IMG/VR virus record: IMGVR_UViG_3300046057_000065
Span: 1-30,022 of that record
Source of the DNA: a virus
Lineage: Duplodnaviria > Caudoviricetes
DNA: 30,022 bases
Reading direction: 5' to 3' (one strand)
In this document: one piece after another, positions 2,522 through 28,389 of the stretch
How positions within the stretch are numbered: position 1 is the stretch's first letter
How the letters are laid out: each line of letters opens with the position of its first letter
Notes under the pieces: model-generated
The model's database searches: none
The model's input: only the letters and a program-made list of their open reading frames with translations
What the model was told of the DNA's origin: nothing
Program-made: the position numbers and the translations under genes

Positions 2522-2974
2522 AAGTCCAGCCCCTTTTGTCCGGCAAGCGTTGGTCACATCCGCGGCAGATTCTATGTCGAGAAGATCTCTTGCTGGATCA
2601 GTGGCTCTCATGAGGATCGTGTCATCCGGAAACCTTGGGGTGGCGGGGCTATCAGCCCGCCCACGGCAGACCGCCGTGTACTACTCCCGACACCACCAAT
2701 GGATAGGCCTAGACGTTGGGATGCTCGATCAGTAGTGGTGCCCCAGTGGATTGCTGGCAGCGATTTATTAGGGCGGCGTCTATACATAACTATTTTGGTA
2801 GTATCGGGGATGGCTATTGGAAATACACAATCTCACCGCCGGCATGCGCCCCTGACAGCGAATTGGCGGCATATTTGCGGATTAAAATAATTATCAGATG
2901 GTATAGTCCTACCTGCAGCTACTCAAAGTATACTCTACAGAAGATTTACAATAGATTGCTTCGACGTGCTGGGT

Positions 2975-3142
2975 ATGTCAAACGACGACGATCGAGGCTG
3001 GAACATCGTTGGGGGACTCGCACGCCCCGAGTGGCTCGCGAAACTGCTGGGGGCGTCCCGATCTGGTGAGACGTCGCACCTGGACAAGATCGTCCTCGCC
3101 GCGCTCGCGCTCCTCGCGACGAAGGCCGTCGGGCTGTGGTAG
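2975..3142 (+). CDS. 55-aa small protein with C-terminal hydrophobic helix (not in ORF track)
   Basis: Manual translation MSNDDDRGWNIVGGLARPEWLAKLLGASRSGETSHLDKIVLAALALLATKAVGLW*; TTTACAATA about 25-30 nt upstream (leaderless-type spacing). Confidence 0.6.
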   Translation: MSNDDDRGWNIVGGLARPEWLAKLLGASRSGETSHLDKIVLAALALLATKAVGLW

Positions 3143-3145
3143 CCG

Positions 3146-3220
3146 CTACACCCGCTTGCTCCGCGCCGACAGCTGCGAGCGGATCCGCTCGACGTCCTCG
3201 AGGTTGAGCGCCTCGATCAG
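3146..3220 (-). pseudogene. Possible 3' remnant of a displaced gene (LIEALNLEDVERIRSQLSARSKRV*)
   Basis: 24 codons with halophile-like codon usage, no start of their own, beginning at the stop of the 367-aa gene. Confidence 0.3.
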
Positions 3221-4320
3221 CGCTCTTCGACTTCGACCCGCCAGTTGACGTCGTTTGTCTCGATCACGAGCAGCCCAATCCCGTCCTGGGTGACAACGGT
3301 GGTCTCTTCATACGGTCCGATGTCGTTCGCCAGGAGATCGACCCGCTCACCGCGATGGTCCGCCAGCCAAACGGCCAAGTTCCCGTCATCTTCGGCTTCG
3401 ACGGTCACCTCAACGGTACCATCGAAGTCGATCGGGCCCATCCAGTCGTGCTGGTGGCCGGATGCGTCGACGGGCGGTGACTCGACGTCGGAGTCGGCGA
3501 ACCGCGGCTGGGTGACGTTTGCGCTCCAGTCACCGTCAGCGGTGACGTCCAGGAAGTAGTCGCCTTCCGAGAGCGAGAGAGCGACCGCGCCGTCATAGTC
3601 GCCGATCGTGTTGGTGAGGTACCCCTCCGTCTCGCCGGTCTGCTCGTTGATCAGTTCGACCTGGAAGTTGCTCTCTCCGGTGTGCTCGAGGTTGATCGCC
3701 GTGAACCCGCCTTCGACGGAGAAGCTCTTGGACGTGTCAGACCCTTGGCCGCTGAATGTCTGGGGCTCTGGTTCGTCGACCGTGGTCTCTTCGTCCTGGT
3801 CGTCGCCGGTCCCGCTGTCGTCGGTCTGGCCGGAGTCTCCGTCTGTACTGTTATCATCTGTACTTCCATCACCGCTGTCTGTCTGCCCGCCGTCTGTACT
3901 ATCGTCACTGCTGTCGTCGGTAGGGCCATCCGTGTCCTCACTCTCCCCGGAGTCGCCATCGCTAGTTCCGGGATCATCGGCATCCTCGACGTCGTCGGTG
4001 TTGTTGAGCTCTGCGTTAGGGGTGGTATCGCCGCCGTCGCCTGGCGCAACGGCGCCGATCACACCAAACACGAGGATTATCAGCACGAAGACGACAATCC
4101 CAGCGCTCCATCCCCCACCGCTGACGCCAGGAATCGCCCCCAGCGGCGAGTCTGCGACCGTATCACCGAGGCCATGTCGGTTCGTCCCGATCGCGATTAG
4201 GAGATAGAATGGGATGAGGAGTATCAAAAGTGGCAGTAGCAGGAGGTAGACCGCTCCAACGGCGATGTTCCGTTTTGTGTGTCCAGCCTTGAACAACGGC
4301 AGGTGATCGGCAATTGCCAT
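3217..4320 (-). CDS. Membrane-anchored surface protein: 2 TM helices, D/T/S/G-rich linker, two tandem beta-sandwich repeats
   Basis: Hydrophobic runs at about aa 20-44 and 74-92. Repeated SGxG...GxxNxxVxL...LxNxIGxY motif twice. Own AT-rich upstream region 4321-4353. Confidence 0.85.
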   Translation of the reverse strand: MAIADHLPLFKAGHTKRNIAVGAVYLLLLPLLILLIPFYLLIAIGTNRHGLGDTVADSPLGAIPGVSGGGWSAGIVVFVLIILVFGVIGAVAPGDGGDTTPNAELNNTDDVEDADDPGTSDGDSGESEDTDGPTDDSSDDSTDGGQTDSGDGSTDDNSTDGDSGQTDDSGTGDDQDEETTVDEPEPQTFSGQGSDTSKSFSVEGGFTAINLEHTGESNFQVELINEQTGETEGYLTNTIGDYDGAVALSLSEGDYFLDVTADGDWSANVTQPRFADSDVESPPVDASGHQHDWMGPIDFDGTVEVTVEAEDDGNLAVWLADHRGERVDLLANDIGPYEETTVVTQDGIGLLVIETNDVNWRVEVEER

Positions 4321-4428
4321 GACTGTTATCTTATTATTCAGATGTAAAATGTTACCGGGTGGTATCGAGCAGCTCCGTATATCAAAAGAGCTGGCTGAAT
4401 CAGCGCTGCTCGTATGAAAAGTGCGCAG

Positions 4429-4553
4429 GATCTCGGAACGGAACCCTCTTCGAGGGCCTCCGTGGGAAGAGCTTGGACGGTGGAGCGCTAGAACGCCGAC
4501 AACTGTGGTCGCCGTGATGGGCTCACCCTCGGTCAGGGTCAGTCCTCCGGATC
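4429..4553. ncRNA. Candidate multi-stem structured RNA at the end of the tail operon
   Basis: Outer stem GAUC(U)CGGA/UCCGGAUC encloses three paired arms. Structure inferred by eye only. Confidence 0.35.
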
Positions 4554-4563
4554 GGGAAGATCG

Positions 4564-5955
4564 TCATCGCTGTCGGAGGAGCGTCAGCTCGAACTCGTAC
4601 GGGTCGGCCGTCGCGTCTTCACGCGCTGCCGACCAGGAGTCCAGAACGTACGTACCTGTGTCGACCTCGGCGTCGTCGGGTGCGACGAGTTCGATCGTCA
4701 GGTCTTCGTCAGGGAGTGGGTCGACCGGGACGTTCCCGGCGTCCGGGAGCTGCCGGATTTGTGAAGCGCCGACGCGCGAGCCGGCCGCGAAGATATCCGC
4801 GGCGAGCTCGCTGTCGACGGCGATCGGGAGGTCGACCGAGGTGACGCCGTTCGACGACGACCGACTGATCCGCCGGATCGTCTCCCGCGTCAGGTTCATC
4901 GACGTCACGCCGAAGTCGAGGACCCACTCGGCGTTTGAAACCGTGACCGTCGTCGAGTCGGAGGTCGCCGGGTGCGCGTACGTCTCCTCGATCGACGCCG
5001 TCACGAGGTGCTCGCCGAGGTCCGACCCGGACGGCGTCCACGTCATCGTCACCGTGTTCGTCGACTCCGCGTCGACGCCGACCGTCGACGTCGAGACGAC
5101 CTCGGCGTCGCCCGTGATCGCCGGCGGCTCGCGAGCTCGCGGCCGATCGAGACCGAGGTCGAGCGACAGCTCCCACCGATCCTCGCCGGCCTCCGAGACC
5201 GAGTACCCGGCCGGGTGTACCTTCCGCTCCGAGAACGGCGGGACGAGCTTCTCCGGCGGCGTGACCGTGATCGGATCGAGCGCGCCGCGACTGATCCGGC
5301 GGAAGGCGCCGTACGCCGTCTCCTCGCGATCGACGTCGCCCGCCGCCTCGAGGTACTCGAGCGCGTCCTTCTTTGCCGCCGGGACGACTGCGCCGAACGA
5401 GACGACGTCGTGGTCCGTCTGAACAGTGATCGGCTCGAGGAGGACCCGAGCGACGCCCGTCTCGTTAGGGACGGCCCACGCCCGCACAGCGCGCCACGAC
5501 GTCGACGCATCTCCGCCCGGGGAGGTCGCCGTCGTCGTCCGCACCGCGACGACTGATCGAGAGACGGTCGCGTCCCCGCCGGGTGACTCCGCGAGCGTCG
5601 TCCGCGCCGACGTCGACGAGCGTGTGACGATCGCGTCGCCGGTCCCGTCCGCCGACGTCGTCCTCGAGATCGCGGCCGTCCGTGTGACGACCGCGTCGCC
5701 GGCGCCGCTCGCGAGCGTCGATCGAGCGCCGTCCAGAACGCGTGTGACGACCGCGTCGCCACCGGGAGAGATGGCCGTCGTCGTCCGTGTGTGTGTCTCA
5801 ACGACCGAGACGCTCGTCGAATCTGACCCTCCGACCGGGTCGTTGGCCGTGGCTGTCCAGTCGCCTTTGTCGTCGGTCGACGTCGACCAGTTGAGAGTGA
5901 GCGAGTCGGTCCCGCCATGATCGAGCGTGACCGTCGCGGAGTCGACCGTCGGCAT
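4564..5955 (-). CDS. Minor tail protein: two half-CARDB modules, 20/21-aa repeats, two possible distal-tail (Dit)-like domains
   Basis: Last gene of the tail operon; internal duplications visible in the protein; Dit assignment is inference. Confidence 0.7.
   Translation of the reverse strand: MPTVDSATVTLDHGGTDSLTLNWSTSTDDKGDWTATANDPVGGSDSTSVSVVETHTRTTTAISPGGDAVVTRVLDGARSTLASGAGDAVVTRTAAISRTTSADGTGDAIVTRSSTSARTTLAESPGGDATVSRSVVAVRTTTATSPGGDASTSWRAVRAWAVPNETGVARVLLEPITVQTDHDVVSFGAVVPAAKKDALEYLEAAGDVDREETAYGAFRRISRGALDPITVTPPEKLVPPFSERKVHPAGYSVSEAGEDRWELSLDLGLDRPRAREPPAITGDAEVVSTSTVGVDAESTNTVTMTWTPSGSDLGEHLVTASIEETYAHPATSDSTTVTVSNAEWVLDFGVTSMNLTRETIRRISRSSSNGVTSVDLPIAVDSELAADIFAAGSRVGASQIRQLPDAGNVPVDPLPDEDLTIELVAPDDAEVDTGTYVLDSWSAAREDATADPYEFELTLLRQR
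5491..5787 (-). repeat. Five 60/63-bp coding repeats (RTTxA..GGDAxVTR)
   Basis: CGTGTGACGA(C/T)CGCGTCGCC recurs at 5621, 5681 and 5741 (exact 60-nt period); protein units start at R57, R78, R98, R118, R139. Confidence 0.9.
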
Positions 5956-5956
5956 C

Positions 5957-6151
5957 TTACTGTTCCTCGACAGTCAGCTCGACGTCTCCCTCGCCGGCGC
6001 CGCCGAGGTTCTCGACCTCGACGTCGACCTCGAGCTGTTGCCCCGCCTCGACCGGCGAGTTCGTCGAGACGATGGTGACCTCGAGGTACGGGTCGTCTCC
6101 CCACGACCCCTCGCCCCACGCCTTCCGTCCCCAGCCGGCGTATCCGGTCAT
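5957..6151 (-). CDS. 64-aa protein: (WGxxx)3 motif plus N-terminal half of a CARDB/Ig-like domain
   Basis: GWGRKAWGEGSWG followed by VTIVSTNSPVEAGQQLEVDVEVENLG, typical of the start of haloarchaeal CARDB domains. Confidence 0.75.
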   Translation of the reverse strand: MTGYAGWGRKAWGEGSWGDDPYLEVTIVSTNSPVEAGQQLEVDVEVENLGGAGEGDVELTVEEQ

Positions 6152-6154
6152 GCG

Positions 6155-6508
6155 TTACTCCTCCGTTTCGGCGAGTTCGGCGAGCGTGTCTCCCGTGACG
6201 ACGTCGGCGAGCTCGTCGACGATAGTCTCGAGCGCGGCGACCTCGGCGTCGAGTCCGACTTCGTCGTCCTCGCGCGCCGCCTCGAGGTCGTCGTACGCGG
6301 AAGCGATCAACTCCCGGGTGTCCGCGGAGATTTTCTCCCGGCGTACCGAGACTCCCGGCGGCGCGTTTTCCTCCGCTTCGCGTGCCTCTCCAATCCGGAT
6401 ACTCGCCTCGAGGTCCTCGCGCTCGGTCGTCTCGATGACGTCGCGTTTGTCTAAGAGCCGGATTAGTGCGTTGAGGGTGTCGTGGGTGATCTGCTCTCGT
6501 TTCGTCAT
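6155..6508 (-). CDS. Helical acidic protein (117 aa), candidate tail-fibre assembly factor
   Basis: ATGA overlap with the fibre gene stop; position directly after the fibre; function inferred from synteny only. Confidence 0.65.
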   Translation of the reverse strand: MTKREQITHDTLNALIRLLDKRDVIETTEREDLEASIRIGEAREAEENAPPGVSVRREKISADTRELIASAYDDLEAAREDDEVGLDAEVAALETIVDELADVVTGDTLAELAETEE

Positions 6509-7353
6509 GGTAGGGTGTGACTGTGTTCGGGGAGACTGACGTTGTGCGGCCACATTTCGTTCAATACGATGCCGTATTCGTACTGATCGCTCGTGTTCTT
6601 GACCTCGAAAGCCCATTGATAAACGGTGTCCTCCGGGATGGCATCGCTCCACGAGTGGCTCGTATTTTCGCCGCTCGAGCCCGTCGAGCTCGCATATACC
6701 CAGTTGACATTCCTGCCTTCCTCTGGGACATATCCGACGCGCTCGAGGATCGCATCATAATCGAGGTCGAACGACAGATAATAGCCGTCGACCGGCCCCA
6801 ACAGGTCGAGGCGCTCGTCGCGGTAATAATGCACTTCTGTGGAATGGGGCGACGTCAGTTTTTGCGTCCCGTCTGACTCGTTTCCATTCCACCAGTCCGG
6901 GTTTGATTCACCGCTTTCGATATACCCGGTCGATTGCGAGGCGGGATTTGTCTCACTCGGGTAGGTGATATCCGACGCGTGTTGCCCGTCGACCGTATCG
7001 GCGTCGAGGTTTGACCCCGACCCTTGTGGGCTTACGCTTACCGTCTGACTCGTGTCGACGGAGATATTCCCACCGCCTGAGACCGGGTCGTGTAGGTCGT
7101 TCATCCCGGCGACGTCGCCGTTCGACCCGTGGACATTCGTCGCCGATTCGTGATCGGAGAGGTTACTCGCGTTCGTCGAGACGTCCGACTCGATCGAGTT
7201 GAGGATCGTGTCGAGCGGTTCGATCAGCCCGTCGTTGTTCGTTTCCGCGCTCCCGTCCTCGAGGATCAGATGCCACAGGTCGACGTAATCGTCGTCGGCA
7301 CCACTCATAAGCGGGAAGCCGTAGTTCGGGGTCTCTGGTGGGTCTTCAGCCAT
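6505..7353 (-). CDS. Tail fibre / receptor-binding protein
   Basis: N-terminal TPNYGFPL motif, short coiled coil ending HESATNVHG, QGSGSNLDADTVDGQHAS (LDADxxDG fibre motif), aromatic-rich C-terminal domain. Confidence 0.75.
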   Translation of the reverse strand: MAEDPPETPNYGFPLMSGADDDYVDLWHLILEDGSAETNNDGLIEPLDTILNSIESDVSTNASNLSDHESATNVHGSNGDVAGMNDLHDPVSGGGNISVDTSQTVSVSPQGSGSNLDADTVDGQHASDITYPSETNPASQSTGYIESGESNPDWWNGNESDGTQKLTSPHSTEVHYYRDERLDLLGPVDGYYLSFDLDYDAILERVGYVPEEGRNVNWVYASSTGSSGENTSHSWSDAIPEDTVYQWAFEVKNTSDQYEYGIVLNEMWPHNVSLPEHSHTLP

Positions 7354-7356
7354 GAG

Positions 7357-7707
7357 TTACACCTGCGGAAGTTCGACTGAGTGAGTCAGTTCGAGCTGGT
7401 CGTTATCGTCGATGATCACGTTTGCCCCCTCGAAATTGTCGTCGTGCGTCGCCGACGAACTGTCGCTCGTATGCAGGGACGAGCCCGAGAACTCGGTCGG
7501 CGTCGGGATATCCGAGTCGGCTCCCGTGATCGTCACGGAGAGGTCGACCGGGTTCGTCGACGGGTCGCCCCATGACGTCCGGGAGTCGTTCGCGATGTCG
7601 ATGCGCGTCACCTCGTTCCCCGCGTCGTCGATCAGTGCGATGTGCGACCATCGATTCGTTACGGCGGTTCGGAGGTCTTCGTATCCGAGCGCGTTGAAGT
7701 CTGACAT
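7357..7707 (-). CDS. Small beta-rich minor tail protein (116 aa)
   Basis: Between hub and fibre; WSHIALIDDAGNEVTR pattern resembles small fibre-associated virion proteins. Confidence 0.7.
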   Translation of the reverse strand: MSDFNALGYEDLRTAVTNRWSHIALIDDAGNEVTRIDIANDSRTSWGDPSTNPVDLSVTITGADSDIPTPTEFSGSSLHTSDSSSATHDDNFEGANVIIDDNDQLELTHSVELPQV

Positions 7708-7751
7708 TGATCTGTTTTCTGTCTGTGTTCTGATATATGATGTTTCCCCCG

Positions 7752-8786
7752 CTATCGGCCGGCGAGCGTCAGTTTCCGATTTGAGAGGAGGACGTCGACG
7801 GTGTCCCCCTCATCGTCGATCGAGCGCGTCGTCTCGATCACTCGGAGCCGCTCGTCGATGCCGTACGCGGGGAGCTGTACCGGGTACGAGTCGCCGACCG
7901 CCGGGCGCGGGTCGAACTGGTCGACGTCGAGCGCCGTCTCGACCTCGAGGTACTCCGGCGCGTCTGCGTACTCGTTCGCGAGCCGCGTCGCCCGTGCCTG
8001 TAAGCGCGAGCTCGACGTCGAGTCGATCCAGTCGACCTCCCACACCTGCCGCTCGCCGGCGTCGGTCGCGATCGCGGTCGCCTCCTCGTAGATCGTCGGA
8101 TCGTCGTCGGAGATGGCGCGGACGTCCGTCACCTCCTCACGGAGCGTCTGTCGGATCCGCGGCTCCTCGATCACGGCGCCCGCCGACGGAGAGACGACGT
8201 CGTCTCGAGCGGCGCCGCGCCGGTCGAGATAATCCACGGTGCCGTCCGGGTGGTACCTGACCTCGGCGCCGGTCGAGTCCGCGAGCTCGCGGAGCATCGT
8301 CGCGGCCGAGGTGTGGGTCGCCCCGTAGTCAATCGACGACGTCGTCTGCTCGACGACGCCGGTCGCGATCGACGCCGGCATCAGGTCGAGTATGTCCGAC
8401 GCGATCACGTCGTCGGCGGCGGCGCTGCGGGAGAACTCGACCGGCGGCTCGTCGTCGAGCGCGTCGCGTTCCCACGAGTCGATCTGGACGGAGACGGTCG
8501 TCCCGTCGAACTGCCAGTCATCGAGCCGGCCGCCGAAGATCGCCGTCCCGGTGTCGTCCTCGACATACAGCTCGTCATCACGCCGATCGACGAGGTCGAG
8601 GACGTCGAGCCACTCGTCGCGGAAGACGGCCGCCTCGCAGCGACCGACCCGGTCGAGCGCGCGCTCGACGCTGATCGTCGAGAGGGTGACGCGCTCGTCG
8701 TCGATCGCGGTCGGAGACGGGACGACGAGCTCGGATGTCTCGCCGCTCGCGTGCTCGATGACGAGCGTCAGGTCGGCAGTCGCCAC
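7752..8786 (-). CDS. Tail tip / baseplate hub (Tal/gp27-like) protein
   Basis: Follows the tape measure; IFGGRL, LRELADSTG.E....DGTVDYL and VGDSYPV...YGIDERLRVIE patterns typical of hub proteins. Confidence 0.7.
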   Translation of the reverse strand: MATADLTLVIEHASGETSELVVPSPTAIDDERVTLSTISVERALDRVGRCEAAVFRDEWLDVLDLVDRRDDELYVEDDTGTAIFGGRLDDWQFDGTTVSVQIDSWERDALDDEPPVEFSRSAAADDVIASDILDLMPASIATGVVEQTTSSIDYGATHTSAATMLRELADSTGAEVRYHPDGTVDYLDRRGAARDDVVSPSAGAVIEEPRIRQTLREEVTDVRAISDDDPTIYEEATAIATDAGERQVWEVDWIDSTSSSRLQARATRLANEYADAPEYLEVETALDVDQFDPRPAVGDSYPVQLPAYGIDERLRVIETTRSIDDEGDTVDVLLSNRKLTLAGR

Positions 8787-8788
8787 GA

Positions 8789-11146
8789 TCAGGCACCTCC
8801 GAGCGGGTCACGGCCGGAACGCCGATCTTCCGCGACGCCGAGCGCCCGGAGGACCTCTTTCTGACTGACGTCGCCGGCGTCGAGCGCGGCGAGGAGCTCG
8901 ACGACGCGCCGGAGGAGGGAGACGATTTCGTCATCCCTCGAGGCGGCCTCGACCGCCGCTGCGACGTCCTCGGCGTCGGCGCCCGCGTCGGCCTCGACCT
9001 CGCCGCGATCGGAGACCTGCGCCGACTGTACGACTTGCTCCCCCTCGTGGAGGTACGCGCGCCCCTCCTCCTCGATGTACCCGCCGGTGTCGAGCTGCGG
9101 GAGGTCGAACGAGCCGCCGCCGACCGTCTTCGACGGGAGCTCGCCGCCGACCTCCTGACCGGCGATTTCGGTACTGATCGACTGACCGCCGACCTCGACC
9201 TCGGGGAGCTCGATCGAGTCCGGGACGACCGCATTGAAGCCCTCGCGGACGGTCGAGCCGATCGCGTCACCGGCGCCGGAGAGTGCGTCGACGACGCCGT
9301 CGAATATCTCGCCGGCGACGCCGATCGCCGACCCTTTGAGGTCCTCGAGGACGCCGATGACGGCGCCTTTGACGTCCCACGTCCCGGTGAACCACGAGAC
9401 GAGCTCGCCCGCGGAGTCTTTGACGCCGTCGACGAGCCCGGTAAAGACGGACCTCGCCGTCGACGTCGACGCGCGGAACTGTGAGACGATCCGGCCCCAC
9501 GTCCGACCGAGGTATCCCTCGATCGCGGACCACGCGCCTTCCCAGTCGCCGCGGATCGCCGCGAGCGCGACGGTGATCGACGTCGATATCAGGTCGAGCG
9601 TTTGGTCGATCACGCGCCGGACGGTCCCGATCGCGAGCTCGACGACGGCGGTGATCTCGTCGCCGAACGTCGACCAAAGCGTCTGATACACGCCGAGGTA
9701 CAGGGAGAACGCCGTCTGTACGCCGGAGAGGAAGCCGTCGACGTACGGGCGGGCCCAACCGACGAACGACGTCAGTCGCGCCTCGAGGACGTCCCACGTC
9801 GCGGTGAACTCGGCCTCGAGCGGGGCAACGTGTGTCGCGTGCGCCGAGGAGAGGTACCCGAACAGGTTGTTTAGCGGCGGCATCGCGACCGAGACGGCCG
9901 TCTGTATCGCGCTCTCGACGGCGCCGAATGTCGAGTCGACGCCTGCCTCGAGCTGATCGAGCGTCGGCGGGACCGTCCGCTCGAGGTACCCGACGACGTC
10001 GTCGAGGTCGCCCGTGACGGAGCCGACGACGTCGTCGACGATGCCCTGTATCCCGAGGAAGTCCGTCTTCCACGCCGCCGCGAGGACGCCGGCGATCGCG
10101 ACGAGCGGGAGGATCGTCGTCATGAGCGCCCCCATCGCGCCCGTCACGGCGCCGAGTGACGGGACGACCGCCGAGACGTTCACCGTCGAGAGGAACATAC
10201 CGGCGGAGCCGGCGGCCATCATGACGGGCGCGAGAGCGTCGATCGGCCCGAGGAGCCCGCCGGCCGCGAGCTTCACGTCGTCGAAGCGGGCGCGGAGCCG
10301 ATCCATCGTCGTCAGGGAGTCGTTCGCGGCCTCGGCGTGTTTCCGCGTCGTCCCCTCGGCGTCCGCGAGCGCCTGCTGTTGCGCCTCGAGCTCGTCGTTC
10401 GAGAGGCCGAGGGAGTTCATGAGTTTGTCCTGATCGCCCTCGGCCTCGTTCGTCGCCTGACGGAACTCGCGCATCGCCGTCCGGGAGTCCATCCCTTTCT
10501 CCTCGAGCGCAGCGAGGATCGCCGCCGTATCGTCGACGGAGAGGCCCATCTCCTCGATTTCGGGCCCGACCTTCCGGACGGTTTTCGAGAACCCCTCGAC
10601 GTCCATCGTCGTGTTCCGAGCGATAAACGTGAAGGTGTCCATGTGCTCGTTCAGGTCCGAGACGTCCTCCCCCATCGCGTTGAGCGCGGGCCCCGCGCTC
10701 GAGGCGATCGACTGCGCCGAGGAGTCGGTCGCGTCGGCGACCATGTCGGCGGCCGTCGAGACCTCCCGGAGCTCGTCTTTCGTCGTGACTCCCTGACGGG
10801 CGAGCTCGTCCATCGTACCGACGGCGTCTCCCATCGGGAAGGTCGCGTTGCTCATCGAGGCGGCGAGCTCCTCGGTCTCGTCTCGAGTCAGCTCCGTCGA
10901 CGTCGCCGTCCGGCCGAGAGACTCGCGCCACTTCTGCGTCGAGTCGAGCGTCTGCTGCATCGCGCCGCCGGCGGCCGCGATCCCGCCGGAGGCAGCCGCT
11001 CCCGCGGCGTCGAACTCGAAAAGAGTGTCTTGAGTGTTCTCGGCCGCGTCGTCGAATTCGTTACTCGCGTCGGCGGCCTCGTTCGCGTTATCGACGAAGT
11101 CGCTCGCGTCGAGCTCGAGCGCGCCGCCGAGATTATAGTCTGCCAT
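8789..11146 (-). CDS. Tail tape measure protein (785 aa)
   Basis: Longest tail gene, directly after the chaperone pair; helical A/G-rich; central hydrophobic segment; periodic W/F; C-terminal LPQLDTGG...AYLHEGEQVV motif. Confidence 0.93.
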   Translation of the reverse strand: MADYNLGGALELDASDFVDNANEAADASNEFDDAAENTQDTLFEFDAAGAAASGGIAAAGGAMQQTLDSTQKWRESLGRTATSTELTRDETEELAASMSNATFPMGDAVGTMDELARQGVTTKDELREVSTAADMVADATDSSAQSIASSAGPALNAMGEDVSDLNEHMDTFTFIARNTTMDVEGFSKTVRKVGPEIEEMGLSVDDTAAILAALEEKGMDSRTAMREFRQATNEAEGDQDKLMNSLGLSNDELEAQQQALADAEGTTRKHAEAANDSLTTMDRLRARFDDVKLAAGGLLGPIDALAPVMMAAGSAGMFLSTVNVSAVVPSLGAVTGAMGALMTTILPLVAIAGVLAAAWKTDFLGIQGIVDDVVGSVTGDLDDVVGYLERTVPPTLDQLEAGVDSTFGAVESAIQTAVSVAMPPLNNLFGYLSSAHATHVAPLEAEFTATWDVLEARLTSFVGWARPYVDGFLSGVQTAFSLYLGVYQTLWSTFGDEITAVVELAIGTVRRVIDQTLDLISTSITVALAAIRGDWEGAWSAIEGYLGRTWGRIVSQFRASTSTARSVFTGLVDGVKDSAGELVSWFTGTWDVKGAVIGVLEDLKGSAIGVAGEIFDGVVDALSGAGDAIGSTVREGFNAVVPDSIELPEVEVGGQSISTEIAGQEVGGELPSKTVGGGSFDLPQLDTGGYIEEEGRAYLHEGEQVVQSAQVSDRGEVEADAGADAEDVAAAVEAASRDDEIVSLLRRVVELLAALDAGDVSQKEVLRALGVAEDRRSGRDPLGGA

Positions 11147-24033: not shown

Positions 24034-24285
24034 TTACGATTGCTGGCCTGCATAAATATTATAAAGAACTTTCCGAGCGTCGCCGGAATCGCGCGTCTTA
24101 GACAAATTGCACTGTCCTCCGAGCCGATCTAAAGCGAACCGAACAGTCGGCTCGGGGAGGTTCGTTCGATCGATCAGCTGGGCGACTGTGAGCGGGCCTT
24201 CGCGATCGAGGACGTCGTAGACGTAGTTGGCACTGGGCGGCAGGTCCTCACGGGCGTCGTCGTGACCGGCCGTTTGGTCAGTCAC
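24034..24285 (-). CDS. Archaeal winged-HTH regulator (83 aa from GTG 24285)
   Basis: LPPSANYVYDVLDREGPLT...TNLPEPTVRFALDRL...DARKVLY matches the haloarchaeal LPPSA-type wHTH pattern. Confidence 0.82.
   Translation of the reverse strand: MTDQTAGHDDAREDLPPSANYVYDVLDREGPLTVAQLIDRTNLPEPTVRFALDRLGGQCNLSKTRDSGDARKVLYNIYAGQQS
24058..24074 (-). promoter_or_regulatory. Putative BRE-TATA late promoter
   Basis: Minus-strand GGAAAGTTCTTTATAAT (purine-rich BRE plus TTTATAA) inside the 3' end of the wHTH gene. Confidence 0.6.
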
Positions 24286-27200
24286 TTGGGGGGTCACCCG
24301 TACTGGCCGCCGATTGCCAGTCCCACTCACCACCTCCGGACTCGGTCGTTGCCGTCTCCTCGTGTTCAGTCGACACAGTGGGGTCCCGAATCGCCAACGA
24401 CCACGTATAGGAGTCCAATACGTGATCGTTGGTGGTTAGTTGCGACGTGGTATCGACGACGCCGGCGTTCGGCGCCCCACTGTCGGCATACACGGTCGCG
24501 CCGTGGTCGCCCGCCTTCTCGAAGGCTTGCACGGCGGGGTTTCCAAACTCGTCATCACAAAGCCGTTTGAGCGTCGTCCGGACGTGCTCTTTCGAGCAAC
24601 CGACTGACTCCGCGATCTCCCGTGCGGTCTTCGTTCCAGCGTCACTGCGGAGCGCGTCGACGATCTCGCGCTGTGTGTCGGTGAACACCCACTCGACGCC
24701 CGGCACCTCGACGTCGGCGAGACCGGCGGGCATCGCATCGGTTCGGACGAACACAGTTGCGTGGGAGTCGTCCTCGCCGGGATCACGGGCGTACCGGCCC
24801 GCGGCCTGGGCAGTGTGGTTCTCGCGAACGCTCGCGAGGATCTCCTGGGCGACGTCGGCGTCGGGCCCTGAGAACGTGCGACCAGATTCGCGCTGCTCAC
24901 CGGTGCCGTCACAGGCGTCACATCCCTCGTCGTGCGTACTACACGTGTCTATCTCGCAATGGCCGTCACATGTCCCTGTTCCCTCGCAGTGGCCACAGTC
25001 GACGATCGTTGGCTCAGCGTCGAGATCAAGTTCGGCAAGGAGGTCGACGACGAACTTATCGCCGGGGTCGAGACACCCGTTCACCAGCCCAATCCGTTCC
25101 TGTGCAAAGTCGTTCCGAGACTTCTCGGAACCGTAGGTCATCACGTCCGGTTGGGTACAGCCGGCGTCCTGCATGAGCGTTTCGAGGCGGTCCTCGACGT
25201 TTTTGGTAGTGAGCGCCGTCCGGAAGTTGTCCCCATACTCGTCGACGAGATGTTCACAGAGGGCCTGGGCCTTCCCTTCGTTGAAGTACTTCCCGCTCGC
25301 GAGCGGCCGGGTTGCATCGCCCACCTGGACGACGCGAAGGCCGCGCTCGAAACGCCGCCAGAGCTGTCGCTCTTCGGAGTCGAGGACGTCCTTGATCTGG
25401 ATACTCGGATGAACGTTTACCATCCACTTCGGGCGGGCGGGCCAGGCGTCGAGGCCGACCACGCTGCGAGCCTGCGAGAAGTCCGGCGCCGACCGGACGG
25501 TCCGCAGCTCATTGTCATCGTCGAGCGTGACGCTCACCCACTCACGGTTCCAGGCGTCGTCGTCGACGGCCTGGGCGTCGAGGCGCGGCGGCTCGTGGGG
25601 CGTCTTCCCGAAGCGCCGGCCGTTGCCGCGTTCCTCGGCGTTGAAGATCGCCCGCGCCAGCGCCGGCGCCAGCGTGTGGGCTCGATCGTCTTCGAAGTAG
25701 TGTTCGAGCGGCGGCTCCTGGTGGAGCGCATCGCGCAGCTGCTCGCGCTCCGCTGCGGCGTCGGTCCCGTACTGGTCGTTCAGGGAGAGCTGGATGAACG
25801 CCTCCCAGGTCGTAACCGGTGCGTCGATCGCCTGGAGGTAGGCGGTAACCGCTCGCTCGACGCGGTTCTTTTCGAGATCCTCGACGAAGCCAGGCTCCTC
25901 GTCGATCACGAGGTTCGTCCCGAGGCGAAGTCCTGGGACGTGGGCAAAGTTGTGGGTCGCGAAGACGACGTCGACGTCGTCGCGAACAGCGCGGTAGGAC
26001 TCCCACTGCGAGATCGCGCGGCACGTCGACGGCGTCTCGTCGAAGTCGCCCTCCTCTTCGTCGTACGTCGTCTCACCAGAGCAGCACGGCAGGTCGACGC
26101 CCTGGTCGTTGTGCTCCTCGAGGCGCCGGTGGGCCGCGGAGAACGGGATACCCCTGCCTTCGCACATATCCGCGAGCCACTCGGAGGCGGCCGTCCCGTT
26201 CATCGTGATCGGCGTGTACTCGAGCTCCTCGTCGGCATCCGTAGCGGGCGGATCATAGTCACCGGCGGCGACATCGCACGCCTCATGCCGGGACTGCAGC
26301 GCGAAGTAGTCGACGTCGGCCTCGCGAGCGGCCTCAATCGCCTCGTCGCGAGCGTCCCGCGTCGCGTGAAGGTGGACGACGGGCGCGTTCCCGGTGATGC
26401 CGTCAAGCGTCTGGTCGTTGTTCCAGGGCGTCGTCGCGACGGTGTGGGACTTCCCCAGCGACGTCGGCGCGTCGACGACGGCGGTGTCCTGGTTGCGCAT
26501 CACTTCGGTGATCGTCGCGAACAGTTCGTCGCGAGCCTCGCGCGTCGATGGCCAGTCGAGACCGCGCTTCTTCGCCGCCCGCTTGCGCTCGTGGTGGTCG
26601 AGCGCTTCGAGCTGCCCGAGCGGGAGCGCACTCGTCGGTTGTGCTGACCCCTCGGTTTCGCCTCCGGAATCTGGTTCGTACTCGGGGATCGCGAAGCCAA
26701 GCTCGCGGAGTTCCTCGAGACCGCGGAACCAATCGGCGCCCTTCGCGATCTTCCCCCGCGTCCAGCCACCTGCCGCGATCAACGCCATCTCGACGACCGT
26801 CCCGTGGTCACCGTTGGCAGTGTCGACCCACGTCCCTTTCTCGTCGATATAGTTCGCGTTGCCCGACTCGTAGTTCGTTCCCCAGAGAGGGATAAACGCC
26901 TTCTTCCCATCGCCGGAGTGGTCCTCGGCTTCGCTGACATTCTCAGTCCAGCGGTGGACGATCGTCTTCTCGGCGACCTCGAACGCATCGAGGTTCTCCA
27001 CCGCACGGTAGATCTCGTCGAGGTTATCGGTTGAACCGGAGTTCACATCGTCAGCCGTGTTGGTGCCAACTGGTTCGCCCGTTTCGAGTTCAGCACGACG
27101 GGCAGCCTGCAGTCGGTCCTGTTCGCGCTGGGTTTCAACCCAGCGCTCAAGGGCAGCCTGCCAGTCACCGGTCTCCTGGAACTCGTCCGGCCAGAGCGTC

Positions 27201-28261
27201 GCGACAAGATCGCCGACGTGGTCGGCGTGGCCAGTATCAGTAAACTCCTGTGCCCAGCTCACGGTCTCGTCGACGAGCCCATCGTCGACATCGTCGATCG
27301 GGACGAACGGGTAGTCGGTGCTCCTGCTGGTGTTGGTATTGAGCGGATGGACGACGCCATCGATGCGCTTGTGGATCGACAGCGGCGCCTTATACTGGCG
27401 GTTCTTGTTGTTGACGTAGTCCGCCTCGAACAGGCCCTCTGCCTCTGGGATTGCCTCACGGACCTCTTCGTCGATGTCGGCGAGCCAGTCGTTCAGCCGA
27501 TCGGCGAGTTCAGCGAAGATCCGCTCACGAGCATCTTCGTCGAACTCCTCGGCGATTGGCAGCGTCGCTGCGGGCGCGCCCATGACGTAGGCACCACCGA
27601 CGGAGTCGAGTGCGAACACGGCATCACGGCCGCCCATGAGCTCGGCGAACGCGTCGATGTACTCGGCGAGAGCCTCCTCGACGATGGCCTGTTTCGCCTC
27701 AGGAAGCGGTCGCTCCTTGTGTTCGCTCTCGAGATCGATGTCAGCGAACGGGGCAAACGCCTGGATATCGCCGTACTCGGGAGTCGGCTTATCCTCGATC
27801 CAATCGGGGCCGTCGTCGGTTCTCGTAAATGCCGATTCGTCGTGGAACGCGTCGCTGTAGTTCGTCAGAGCGTAGAGGCTGCGGGCGTCCTCGTCGTCGC
27901 ATACGTTTGAGGTGATCGTGTAGAGATCTCGTTCGAGCGTTTTCACGCGCCCCCAACCGTCGATACCGTCTTCGAGATCAGCAATATCAGTGGCCGGCCG
28001 GCGCGTGTACCAGCCAGCGTTGCCACAGAAGGCGCCGGTCGGAATATCCTCGACCGACGCGAGCTCCTCGAGGACGGCGTCGACGTTCTGGTAGTGCTCT
28101 CTGACAGCTTCATCACCGGGGGTGTCCTCGGGAACTCCCGTGCTCGTTGTTCCGTCGACAGACTTCTCTTCCGTCCCGTCTGGCCGGCAGTTCAGGCAGA
28201 GATGCCCAGACCCAAAGCGTTCTAGGTCTTCAGTGCCTCCGCAGCGGAAGCACTCCGTCAT
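24278..28261 (-). CDS. Multidomain replication protein: Zn ribbon, AEP-like primase/polymerase, SF2-like helicase, HTH (about 1327 aa)
   Basis: CFRC..CLNC; FADIDL, DSVGGAY, RQYKAPLSIH (AEP-like); APTSLGKS, VIDEEP, QAAGRYAR (SF2 motifs I, II, VI); C-terminal TAREIAESVGCSKEHVRTTL. Confidence 0.8.
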   Translation of the reverse strand: MTECFRCGGTEDLERFGSGHLCLNCRPDGTEEKSVDGTTSTGVPEDTPGDEAVREHYQNVDAVLEELASVEDIPTGAFCGNAGWYTRRPATDIADLEDGIDGWGRVKTLERDLYTITSNVCDDEDARSLYALTNYSDAFHDESAFTRTDDGPDWIEDKPTPEYGDIQAFAPFADIDLESEHKERPLPEAKQAIVEEALAEYIDAFAELMGGRDAVFALDSVGGAYVMGAPAATLPIAEEFDEDARERIFAELADRLNDWLADIDEEVREAIPEAEGLFEADYVNNKNRQYKAPLSIHKRIDGVVHPLNTNTSRSTDYPFVPIDDVDDGLVDETVSWAQEFTDTGHADHVGDLVATLWPDEFQETGDWQAALERWVETQREQDRLQAARRAELETGEPVGTNTADDVNSGSTDNLDEIYRAVENLDAFEVAEKTIVHRWTENVSEAEDHSGDGKKAFIPLWGTNYESGNANYIDEKGTWVDTANGDHGTVVEMALIAAGGWTRGKIAKGADWFRGLEELRELGFAIPEYEPDSGGETEGSAQPTSALPLGQLEALDHHERKRAAKKRGLDWPSTREARDELFATITEVMRNQDTAVVDAPTSLGKSHTVATTPWNNDQTLDGITGNAPVVHLHATRDARDEAIEAAREADVDYFALQSRHEACDVAAGDYDPPATDADEELEYTPITMNGTAASEWLADMCEGRGIPFSAAHRRLEEHNDQGVDLPCCSGETTYDEEEGDFDETPSTCRAISQWESYRAVRDDVDVVFATHNFAHVPGLRLGTNLVIDEEPGFVEDLEKNRVERAVTAYLQAIDAPVTTWEAFIQLSLNDQYGTDAAAEREQLRDALHQEPPLEHYFEDDRAHTLAPALARAIFNAEERGNGRRFGKTPHEPPRLDAQAVDDDAWNREWVSVTLDDDNELRTVRSAPDFSQARSVVGLDAWPARPKWMVNVHPSIQIKDVLDSEERQLWRRFERGLRVVQVGDATRPLASGKYFNEGKAQALCEHLVDEYGDNFRTALTTKNVEDRLETLMQDAGCTQPDVMTYGSEKSRNDFAQERIGLVNGCLDPGDKFVVDLLAELDLDAEPTIVDCGHCEGTGTCDGHCEIDTCSTHDEGCDACDGTGEQRESGRTFSGPDADVAQEILASVRENHTAQAAGRYARDPGEDDSHATVFVRTDAMPAGLADVEVPGVEWVFTDTQREIVDALRSDAGTKTAREIAESVGCSKEHVRTTLKRLCDDEFGNPAVQAFEKAGDHGATVYADSGAPNAGVVDTTSQLTTNDHVLDSYTWSLAIRDPTVSTEHEETATTESGGGEWDWQSAASTGDPPSD

Positions 28262-28389
28262 GCTGGCCCCCCAGTAGTTTCCTCGCCGATTTTGCGGTGC
28301 TGCTCGCACTCAGGACACCACAGAACGCCATATCTGGGCGAGGGCATCAGAATGGTGTCGCACTCCTCGCACCGTTCGATGTCCGTCAC
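28258..28389 (-). CDS. 43-aa zinc-finger microprotein (not in ORF track)
   Basis: MTDIERCEECDTILMPSPRYGVLWCPECEQHRKIGEETTGGPA*; GTGA overlap upstream and ATGA overlap with the replicase start. Confidence 0.8.
   Translation of the reverse strand: MTDIERCEECDTILMPSPRYGVLWCPECEQHRKIGEETTGGPA

Follow-up and report, generated by a model that had tools for sequence, protein, structure and literature searches.

Fold complementation is already known as a principle, and published accounts of it extend to the siphovirus baseplate. In Lactococcus phage Tuc2009, a 25-residue C-terminal hairpin of BppU is described as completing a sheet in domain 2 of BppA, so that a titin-like domain results (PMC4742702), and trans-complementation of immunoglobulin (Ig) folds is likewise described for obscurin-like-1/myomesin and for pili (PMC5222588). 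Here we analyze virus record IMGVR_UViG_3300046057_000065, a 30-kb stretch of 30,022 nucleotides, all of which is referred to below as the window. Its tail module includes a gene for a 64-amino acid (aa) protein, P0001, that would donate the first half of a CARDB/Ig domain, and a gene for a 463-aa protein, P0002, that carries the second half twice. The former is called the donor or plug, and the C-terminal halves are called sockets.

As in Tuc2009, an Ig-like sandwich would be built from two gene products, here judged by sequence and by a predicted complex, and complementation would attach an accessory part to a siphovirus baseplate. The likeness is one of description, not of sequence comparison. 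In the Tuc2009 account, the scaffold hairpin completes an accessory protein that binds carbohydrate. In contrast, the cut found here falls near the middle of the domain, the scaffold holds the larger half twice per chain, and the donor is a separate 64-aa protein with around 43 domain residues and no carbohydrate-binding domain. It would be a minimal adaptor plug, with payloads that differ among relatives, in viruses of an archaeal host. Chaperone-usher pili and obscurin-like-1/myomesin share with this locus an incomplete Ig fold restored in trans, reported to make a strong, mechanically resistant link (PMC5222588); however, one strand or linker is donated in the systems described there, whereas half a domain would be donated here, and no chaperone, usher or polymer is implied. 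A last strand supplied by the N-terminus of another subunit, as in chaperone-usher systems, is not seen in the split of the window, although sequences of two relatives suggest it for their Fn3 domains. In the literature searched, a search that was incomplete, no description of a half-and-half split with a double socket was found. What is new is that the domain is cut in its middle, that each ring subunit has two sockets, that the adaptor is minimal and its payload exchangeable, that the clade has another split connector, and that the host is an archaeon.

The split CARDB/Ig domain and its family

The initial annotation of the window had read the end of the 64-aa open reading frame (ORF) as the first half of a CARDB domain and the beginning of the next gene as the second half, and had noticed an orphan second half inside the large protein. 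All three elements were recovered by profile search. The features of the two genes are as follows:

5957..6151, minus strand: gene of the 64-aa donor (plug) P0001; an ORF with 13 stand-alone homologues
6098..6133, minus strand: Trp-Gly motif in three copies, aa 7-18, which probably forms a triangular loop on which a trimeric fibre would dock; motif counts, with function by analogy (PMC8406304, PMC9692632)
5960..6091, minus strand: N-terminal half of the CARDB/Ig domain, strands A/A', B and C; profile positions 3-44 of 96, PF07705 positions 2-42, co-folding interface residues 20-64
5953..5959, minus strand: junction TAA G ATG; the final codons of the donor contain GAGGA, a word that resembles a ribosome-binding site; sequence
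4564..5955, minus strand: 463-aa socket protein P0002, likely a distal tail ring protein; ORF, profile search and predicted model
5797..5952, minus strand: socket 1, a C-terminal CARDB/Ig half, aa 2-53; profile positions 46-95, in 17 of 30 family proteins
5488..5796, minus strand: Ser/Thr/Ala/Gly-rich repeat stalk, aa 54-156; alignment, predicted local distance difference test (pLDDT) 40-47, variable in length and absent in several relatives
5140..5487, minus strand: predicted tail-tube-type barrel A, aa 157-272
4930..5112, minus strand: socket 2, the orphan C-terminal half inside the chain, aa 282-342, situated in the linker that joins the two barrels; profile positions 43-94, in 28 of 30 family proteins, donor-filled in the co-folding model
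4567..4929, minus strand: tail-tube-type barrel B, aa 343-463; predicted model and structure comparison

To derive the CARDB/Ig profile (96 positions), 71 intact repeats were taken from 20 multi-domain proteins of haloarchaea. The 64-aa protein aligned with positions 3-44 (38 bits), aa 3-53 of the 463-aa protein with positions 46-95 (29 bits), and aa 283-340 of the same chain, which have no N-terminal half before them, with positions 43-94 (15 bits). The cut is located in the turn that follows strand C, at position 44/46 of the 96-position profile. When Pfam CARDB (PF07705; cut-off, 22.7 bits) was used, the 64-aa protein alone remained below the cut-off (17.2 bits) and the 463-aa protein alone gave no match; the two ORFs joined with an X at the break scored 27.3 bits (E 4.2e-6), above the cut-off. 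At the sequence level, these comparisons show one CARDB/Ig domain split into complementary halves over two genes, and two C-terminal halves on one 463-aa chain.

The junction between ORF 5957-6151 and ORF 4564-5955 reads GAA CAG TAA G ATG CCG, and contains the string CAG TAA G ATG as initially annotated. A stop codon near-adjacent to an ATG, with a GAGGA word upstream, is ordinarily read as coupled re-initiation, and we infer that two separate proteins are made in this manner; GAGGA also precedes the ATG of several other genes of the module. Contigs of four out of four sequencing runs span positions 5953-5962, and no indel is listed there. This check used contigs rather than raw reads, from one study, and X1 may be the source; over the pieces of the four runs, 0, 38, 34 and 0 letters differed from the window. 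The string TAA G ATG is identical in virus records L001, L002 and L006, the latter encoding a large protein only 42-46% identical to that of the window. In two other records, the junction is TAATG (L003) or TAA followed by 10 nucleotides (L026).

Family counts were obtained from a profile search of 1.84 billion representatives, with the best 150 matches listed, and from further searches. In the socket family, which comprised 30 proteins, the two core domains are separated by a long linker; a further 74 proteins, the outer relatives, had one or both core domains. The counts exclude the fragment P0037, three proteins with multiple CARDB domains and three members of the P0038 cluster. An internal C-terminal half was detected in 28 of the 30 socket-family proteins at a domain E value ≤ 0.05, and by eye in the remaining two. 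A C-terminal half was also found within the first 8 residues in 17 of the 30, and one had an extra C-terminal half behind its N-terminal domain. An N-terminal half, or a whole or fused CARDB domain, was found by profile search in none of them (0/30). Among outer relatives, none of the 74 had a half CARDB domain, and three had an intact CARDB domain before the core. The stand-alone donors (n = 13; 64-69 aa) are 55-100% identical and all end in (V/I)EEQ, while EEQ is found at the equivalent place in 1 of 71 intact CARDB repeats. In a quick tree, the 29 socket-bearing rows group together (Shimodaira-Hasegawa-like approximate likelihood ratio test, SH-aLRT, 94), and the internal half is the sole C-terminal half in 12 of these 29.

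Some architectures deserve mention on their own. P0024, P0025, P0029, P0032 and P0033 have no stalk and consist almost exactly of a socket-plus-barrel unit repeated in tandem. Provirus L018 (G179:C2) encodes one of the three intact-CARDB outer relatives: its 887-aa gene, located directly after a conserved small tail gene, joins a WD40 propeller, the intact CARDB domain behind it, a stalk and both core barrels in one protein, and no separate fibre gene was seen at that locus. The short motif 'V.SGE...V..GE.E.Y' is found at the C- or N-terminus of the ring proteins P0024, P0032, P0071, P0084 and P0100. The stalk of the window protein (5488-5796) is made of repeats of about 21 residues, rich in Ser/Thr/Ala/Gly/Arg and variable in number, and resembles stalks of outer relatives.

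Predicted structures and donor binding

The predicted models show a core of two tail-tube-type barrels in the 463-aa protein, and beta-barrel domains of this type are shared with distal ring proteins of the Dit, baseplate-tail connector (BTC) and hub classes. When the core was compared with known structures, hub, tube-initiator and HFTV1 tail rows came out level, at most about 2 Z apart. The models suggest that the protein is likely a distal tail ring protein, probably pseudo-hexameric, and location at the end of the tail module, together with the fold, would place both proteins in the virion baseplate. The HFTV1 virion is described as anchoring three fibres on its hub, and the available account of its baseplate-tail connector, gp41, describes no Ig sockets on that protein (bioRxiv 2024.12.09.627619).

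In the model of the 463-aa monomer, strands 271-310 of the orphan half are unpaired and the two C-terminal halves are not paired together. In the co-folding model, the donor sits in the internal socket with a score of 0.71, compared with 0.00 for the best control; donor residues 20-64 form the interface, and strand pairing is canonical (B-E and C-F). Hence, completion in trans, as proposed in the initial annotation, is predicted for the internal socket. Three results named there as unfavorable (absence of the extra base, fusion in all homologues, folding of the orphan half with strands of its own chain) were not obtained: the base is present in the contigs, the junction is kept in L001, L002 and L006 with no fused protein in the family, and the orphan strands stay unpaired in the monomer model and take up the donor in the co-folding model. 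The tail-tube-fold identity and the phage precedent of the mechanism go beyond what that annotation had seen.

Uncoupled donors, a putative second connector and the candidate fibre

Gene order in two relatives shows donors uncoupled from socket genes. In L003, the N-terminal half forms the C-terminal end of a 150-aa Fn3 protein and likewise closes with EEQ; the gene that follows the donor has no C-terminal half, and the socket protein, with the internal half only, is encoded three genes further on. In L026, a similar donor ends in TEQ, 10 nucleotides before an unrelated 633-aa gene. The Fn3 domain of the L003 donor shares 48% identity with the Fn3 at the N-terminus of a socket protein from the same subgroup.

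A fibre-like protein ends in an Fn3 domain without its last strand in both L003 and L026, and that strand begins both the donor and a downstream protein. The truncated Fn3 of L003 covers PF00041 positions 1-70 of 84 at the very C-terminus. Compared with P0019, a natural counterpart in which the parts are fused, the C-terminal parts end at 161-163, and the N-terminal parts start at 167 (four out of five) or 171 (one out of five). Sequence thus indicates an Fn3 split with the last strand in trans in both loci:

L003:1999-2847, 1059-1511 and 3065-5530: parts of the putative second split connector (Fn3)
L026:6680-7135, 7146-9047 and 9050 onward: parts of the putative second split connector (Fn3)

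The spacing between split-Fn3 genes is 2 nucleotides in L026. In L003, a 72-aa gene for a hydrophobic membrane protein (2847-3065) lies between the parts, with a one-base overlap with each neighbour.

The morphogenesis module of the window is encoded on the minus strand and contains, according to Pfam and PHROG scans, terminase, portal, head protease, capsid protein, head-tail adaptor and tape measure protein genes. Past the tape measure gene, the order is a 344-aa gene (weak Prophage_tail match, E 0.031), followed by 116-aa, 282-aa and 117-aa genes and then by the 64-aa and 463-aa genes. A siphovirus is likely, as no sheath gene was found among the 28 ORFs scanned in the window. That the virus is a tailed one of haloarchaea is suggested by its acidic proteins, its occurrence in halite metagenomes and the presence of homologues in Natrinema and Saliphagus. 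The genes upstream of the donor are:

6155..6508, minus strand: 117-aa gene between the fibre candidate and the donor; phrog_18438, of unknown function, possibly a fibre chaperone given its position
6505..7353, minus strand: gene of a 282-aa protein, putatively a tail fibre and a candidate for what the Trp-Gly loop carries; its N-terminal motif co-occurs with Trp-Gly donors

The three Trp-Gly repeats reported in the initial annotation are present at aa 7-18 of the plug. Within the first 45 residues, all 13 donors have a triple aromatic/Leu-Gly pattern (mean after shuffling, 0.1), as do 3 of the 30 socket proteins (0.0), each of which lacks an N-terminal half, and 13 of the 74 outer relatives (0.3). 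Because the pattern is found in donors, at the N-termini of socket proteins without an N-terminal half and in outer relatives, the motif is the usual N-terminal arm of the family, transferred to the plug; the Fn3 of the L003 donor follows the same logic. The triple LG repeats of TssG are described as forming triangular loops that bind TssK trimers (PMC8406304), and the Dit hand of phage p2 as a triangular loop that sits inside the receptor-binding trimer's cavity (PMC9692632). The donors share with them three hydrophobic-Gly repeats, about five residues apart as in trimer-docking loops, and by analogy would likely dock a trimer as well. In those accounts the loops are covalent parts of the scaffold, whereas here they would be borne by a detachable plug and contain Trp/Tyr.

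A gene with the N-terminal motif of the 282-aa protein was present in four of four loci with Trp-Gly donors and in none of two loci with Fn3 donors, all of them few and related. The 282-aa protein gave no Pfam or PHROG match, and an Atlas feature match to a Phage_fiber_2 cluster (0.76) is a lead only. Based on the TssG and p2 Dit loops and on this co-occurrence, docking of a fibre on the Trp-Gly loop is putative, with the balance tipping slightly in its favor.

Within the fibre candidate (window 6561-7452), contigs from other halite samples end or differ in sequence, while the donor region is conserved; L002, L006 and L025 share the N-terminus of the fibre candidate and differ in its C-terminal parts. 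Elsewhere in the window, a 1343-aa ORF (24278-28309), with a partial match to a PHROG of unknown function and a C-terminal winged helix, probably encodes a replication protein. L007, a locus in a Saliphagus genome, is likely a decayed provirus: a relic of barrel B only (6205-6396) lies beside an integrase-like gene, and its membrane protein (6697-8115) is 38% identical to the product of the 367-aa window gene (3217-4320) that comes after the socket gene.

Alternative explanations and the proposed arrangement

Several observations call for caution regarding completion of sockets by the plug. The co-folding result may stem from the resemblance of the parts to Ig folds already solved, which is to be expected when one domain is split into halves. 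On its own, socket 1 is modelled with low confidence (pLDDT 45-64), its pairing with the donor lies outside the co-folding model, and Foldseek returned no match at E ≤ 0.001. The internal half of the window protein, at 15 bits, is the weakest match among close family members, and the terminal EE of donors may be kept in part for the overlapping GAGGA word. The junction is visible in six loci only, four of which are close or letter-for-letter alike and all in the +1 frame, and the L026 record stops before any socket gene. Finally, an intact-CARDB protein with a long branch, P0065, falls inside the socket group; for this reason, a single origin of that group is plausible rather than shown.

The break itself might be a sequencing error or a recent single-base insertion that created a pseudogene. 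As the initial annotation pointed out, removal of one T gives CAG AAG ATG and restores the frame; however, the extra base is found without indels in contigs of all four runs, the split is kept in three other virus records, and the products are separate across the family. The conserved split refutes this explanation, to which we assign a negligible probability. A programmed +1 frameshift or bypass, also raised initially, would fuse the ORFs in part of the ribosomes and leave the free 64-aa protein as a by-product. It would agree with the +1 position of TAA G ATG, near-identical in four records, with a read-through product that exceeds the Pfam cut-off, and with the frequent addition of Ig domains by this route in phages (PMC9022992). 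As in the account of SPP1 gp17.1* given there, an Ig-like sequence is out of frame with a tail gene; unlike gp17.1*, described as a whole domain appended past a slippery site, the domain itself is interrupted here and the second gene starts at an ATG of its own. Neither a shift-prone site in a two-frame overlap nor a target ORF that is always adjacent was found. In the four adjacent cases, the frame of the ATG is open for just 6 codons before it, with no homopolymer, slippery run or obvious re-pairing codon, and the ATG of the second ORF is conserved, with a GAGGA word before it. Moreover, two of the six donors with a visible junction precede genes without a C-terminal half (L003 and L026); a frameshift is unable to join the parts in these loci, as the donor is not directly before the socket gene, and a fusion could not complete the internal half where it is the sole one. 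Frameshifting is thus quite improbable.

Pairing between the two C-terminal halves of one chain, or of ring neighbours, would leave the 64-aa protein as a relic or as a ligand of socket 1 only. Although 17 of 30 proteins have two such halves, many relatives have only the internal one, the monomer model leaves the halves unpaired, the internal half accepts the donor in the co-folding model, and the donors are conserved (down to 55% identity) with a fixed end. Such pairing is very improbable, even more so than frameshifting. A less remote explanation, still unlikely, is that the plug binds but merely caps or stabilizes the half-domains, or serves as a surface-binding decoration whose aromatic residues contact S-layer glycans, without docking a fibre. 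Phage Ig-like domains are described as exposed accessory adhesins (PMC9022992), and no family match identifies the 282-aa protein as a fibre. Yet the triple aromatic-Gly spacing is that of the trimer-docking loops described for TssG (PMC8406304), 16 of 104 ring proteins have the pattern at their N-terminus, and an Fn3 connector replaces it in two loci without this fibre type.

We consider complementation in trans very probable, and use of both sockets probable; binding of the donor at the internal socket is predicted by the model; the donor would also bind at the N-terminal socket, and the ring would be trimeric. It is also likely, with slightly less assurance, that the plug folds only by completing half-domain sockets on the likely ring protein, providing up to six docking loops. 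The large protein would form a trimeric, pseudo-six-fold ring at the tail tip and expose two half-Ig sockets per chain. One 64-aa plug would complete each socket and present a Trp-Gly loop anchoring one fibre trimer, with six loops per ring at most; a putative trimer of the 282-aa fibre may dock on the three repeats. With regard to evolution, relatives with a short linker may represent a state in which the arm is borne covalently at the N-terminus, three per ring. Insertion of a C-terminal half into the linker, with the arm supplied in trans, would have created a second site per chain.

A broader view, for which the chances are about even, is that haloarchaeal siphoviruses use a two-connector plug-and-socket code. 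Split CARDB domains would place six arms on a trimeric ring, and split Fn3 domains, with their last strand in trans, would clip adhesins to these arms; loops, lectins and Fn3 chains could be swapped gene by gene, changing host range and valency with the tail core untouched. If the proposal is correct, small 'hypothetical' genes that resemble pseudogene fragments or frameshift errors would be essential adaptors, and such junctions should not be repaired in annotation. The natural, salt-adapted half-and-half split Ig pair (43 + 52 residues) would be a candidate tagging or assembly tool in halophiles, and so would the orthogonal split Fn3 of relatives. For the virus, a plug in two sockets would likely double the attachment fibres carried. 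If true, this arrangement would answer how a three-fold tail-tip protein bears six arms, and would show how archaeal viruses reshuffle their adhesion modules.
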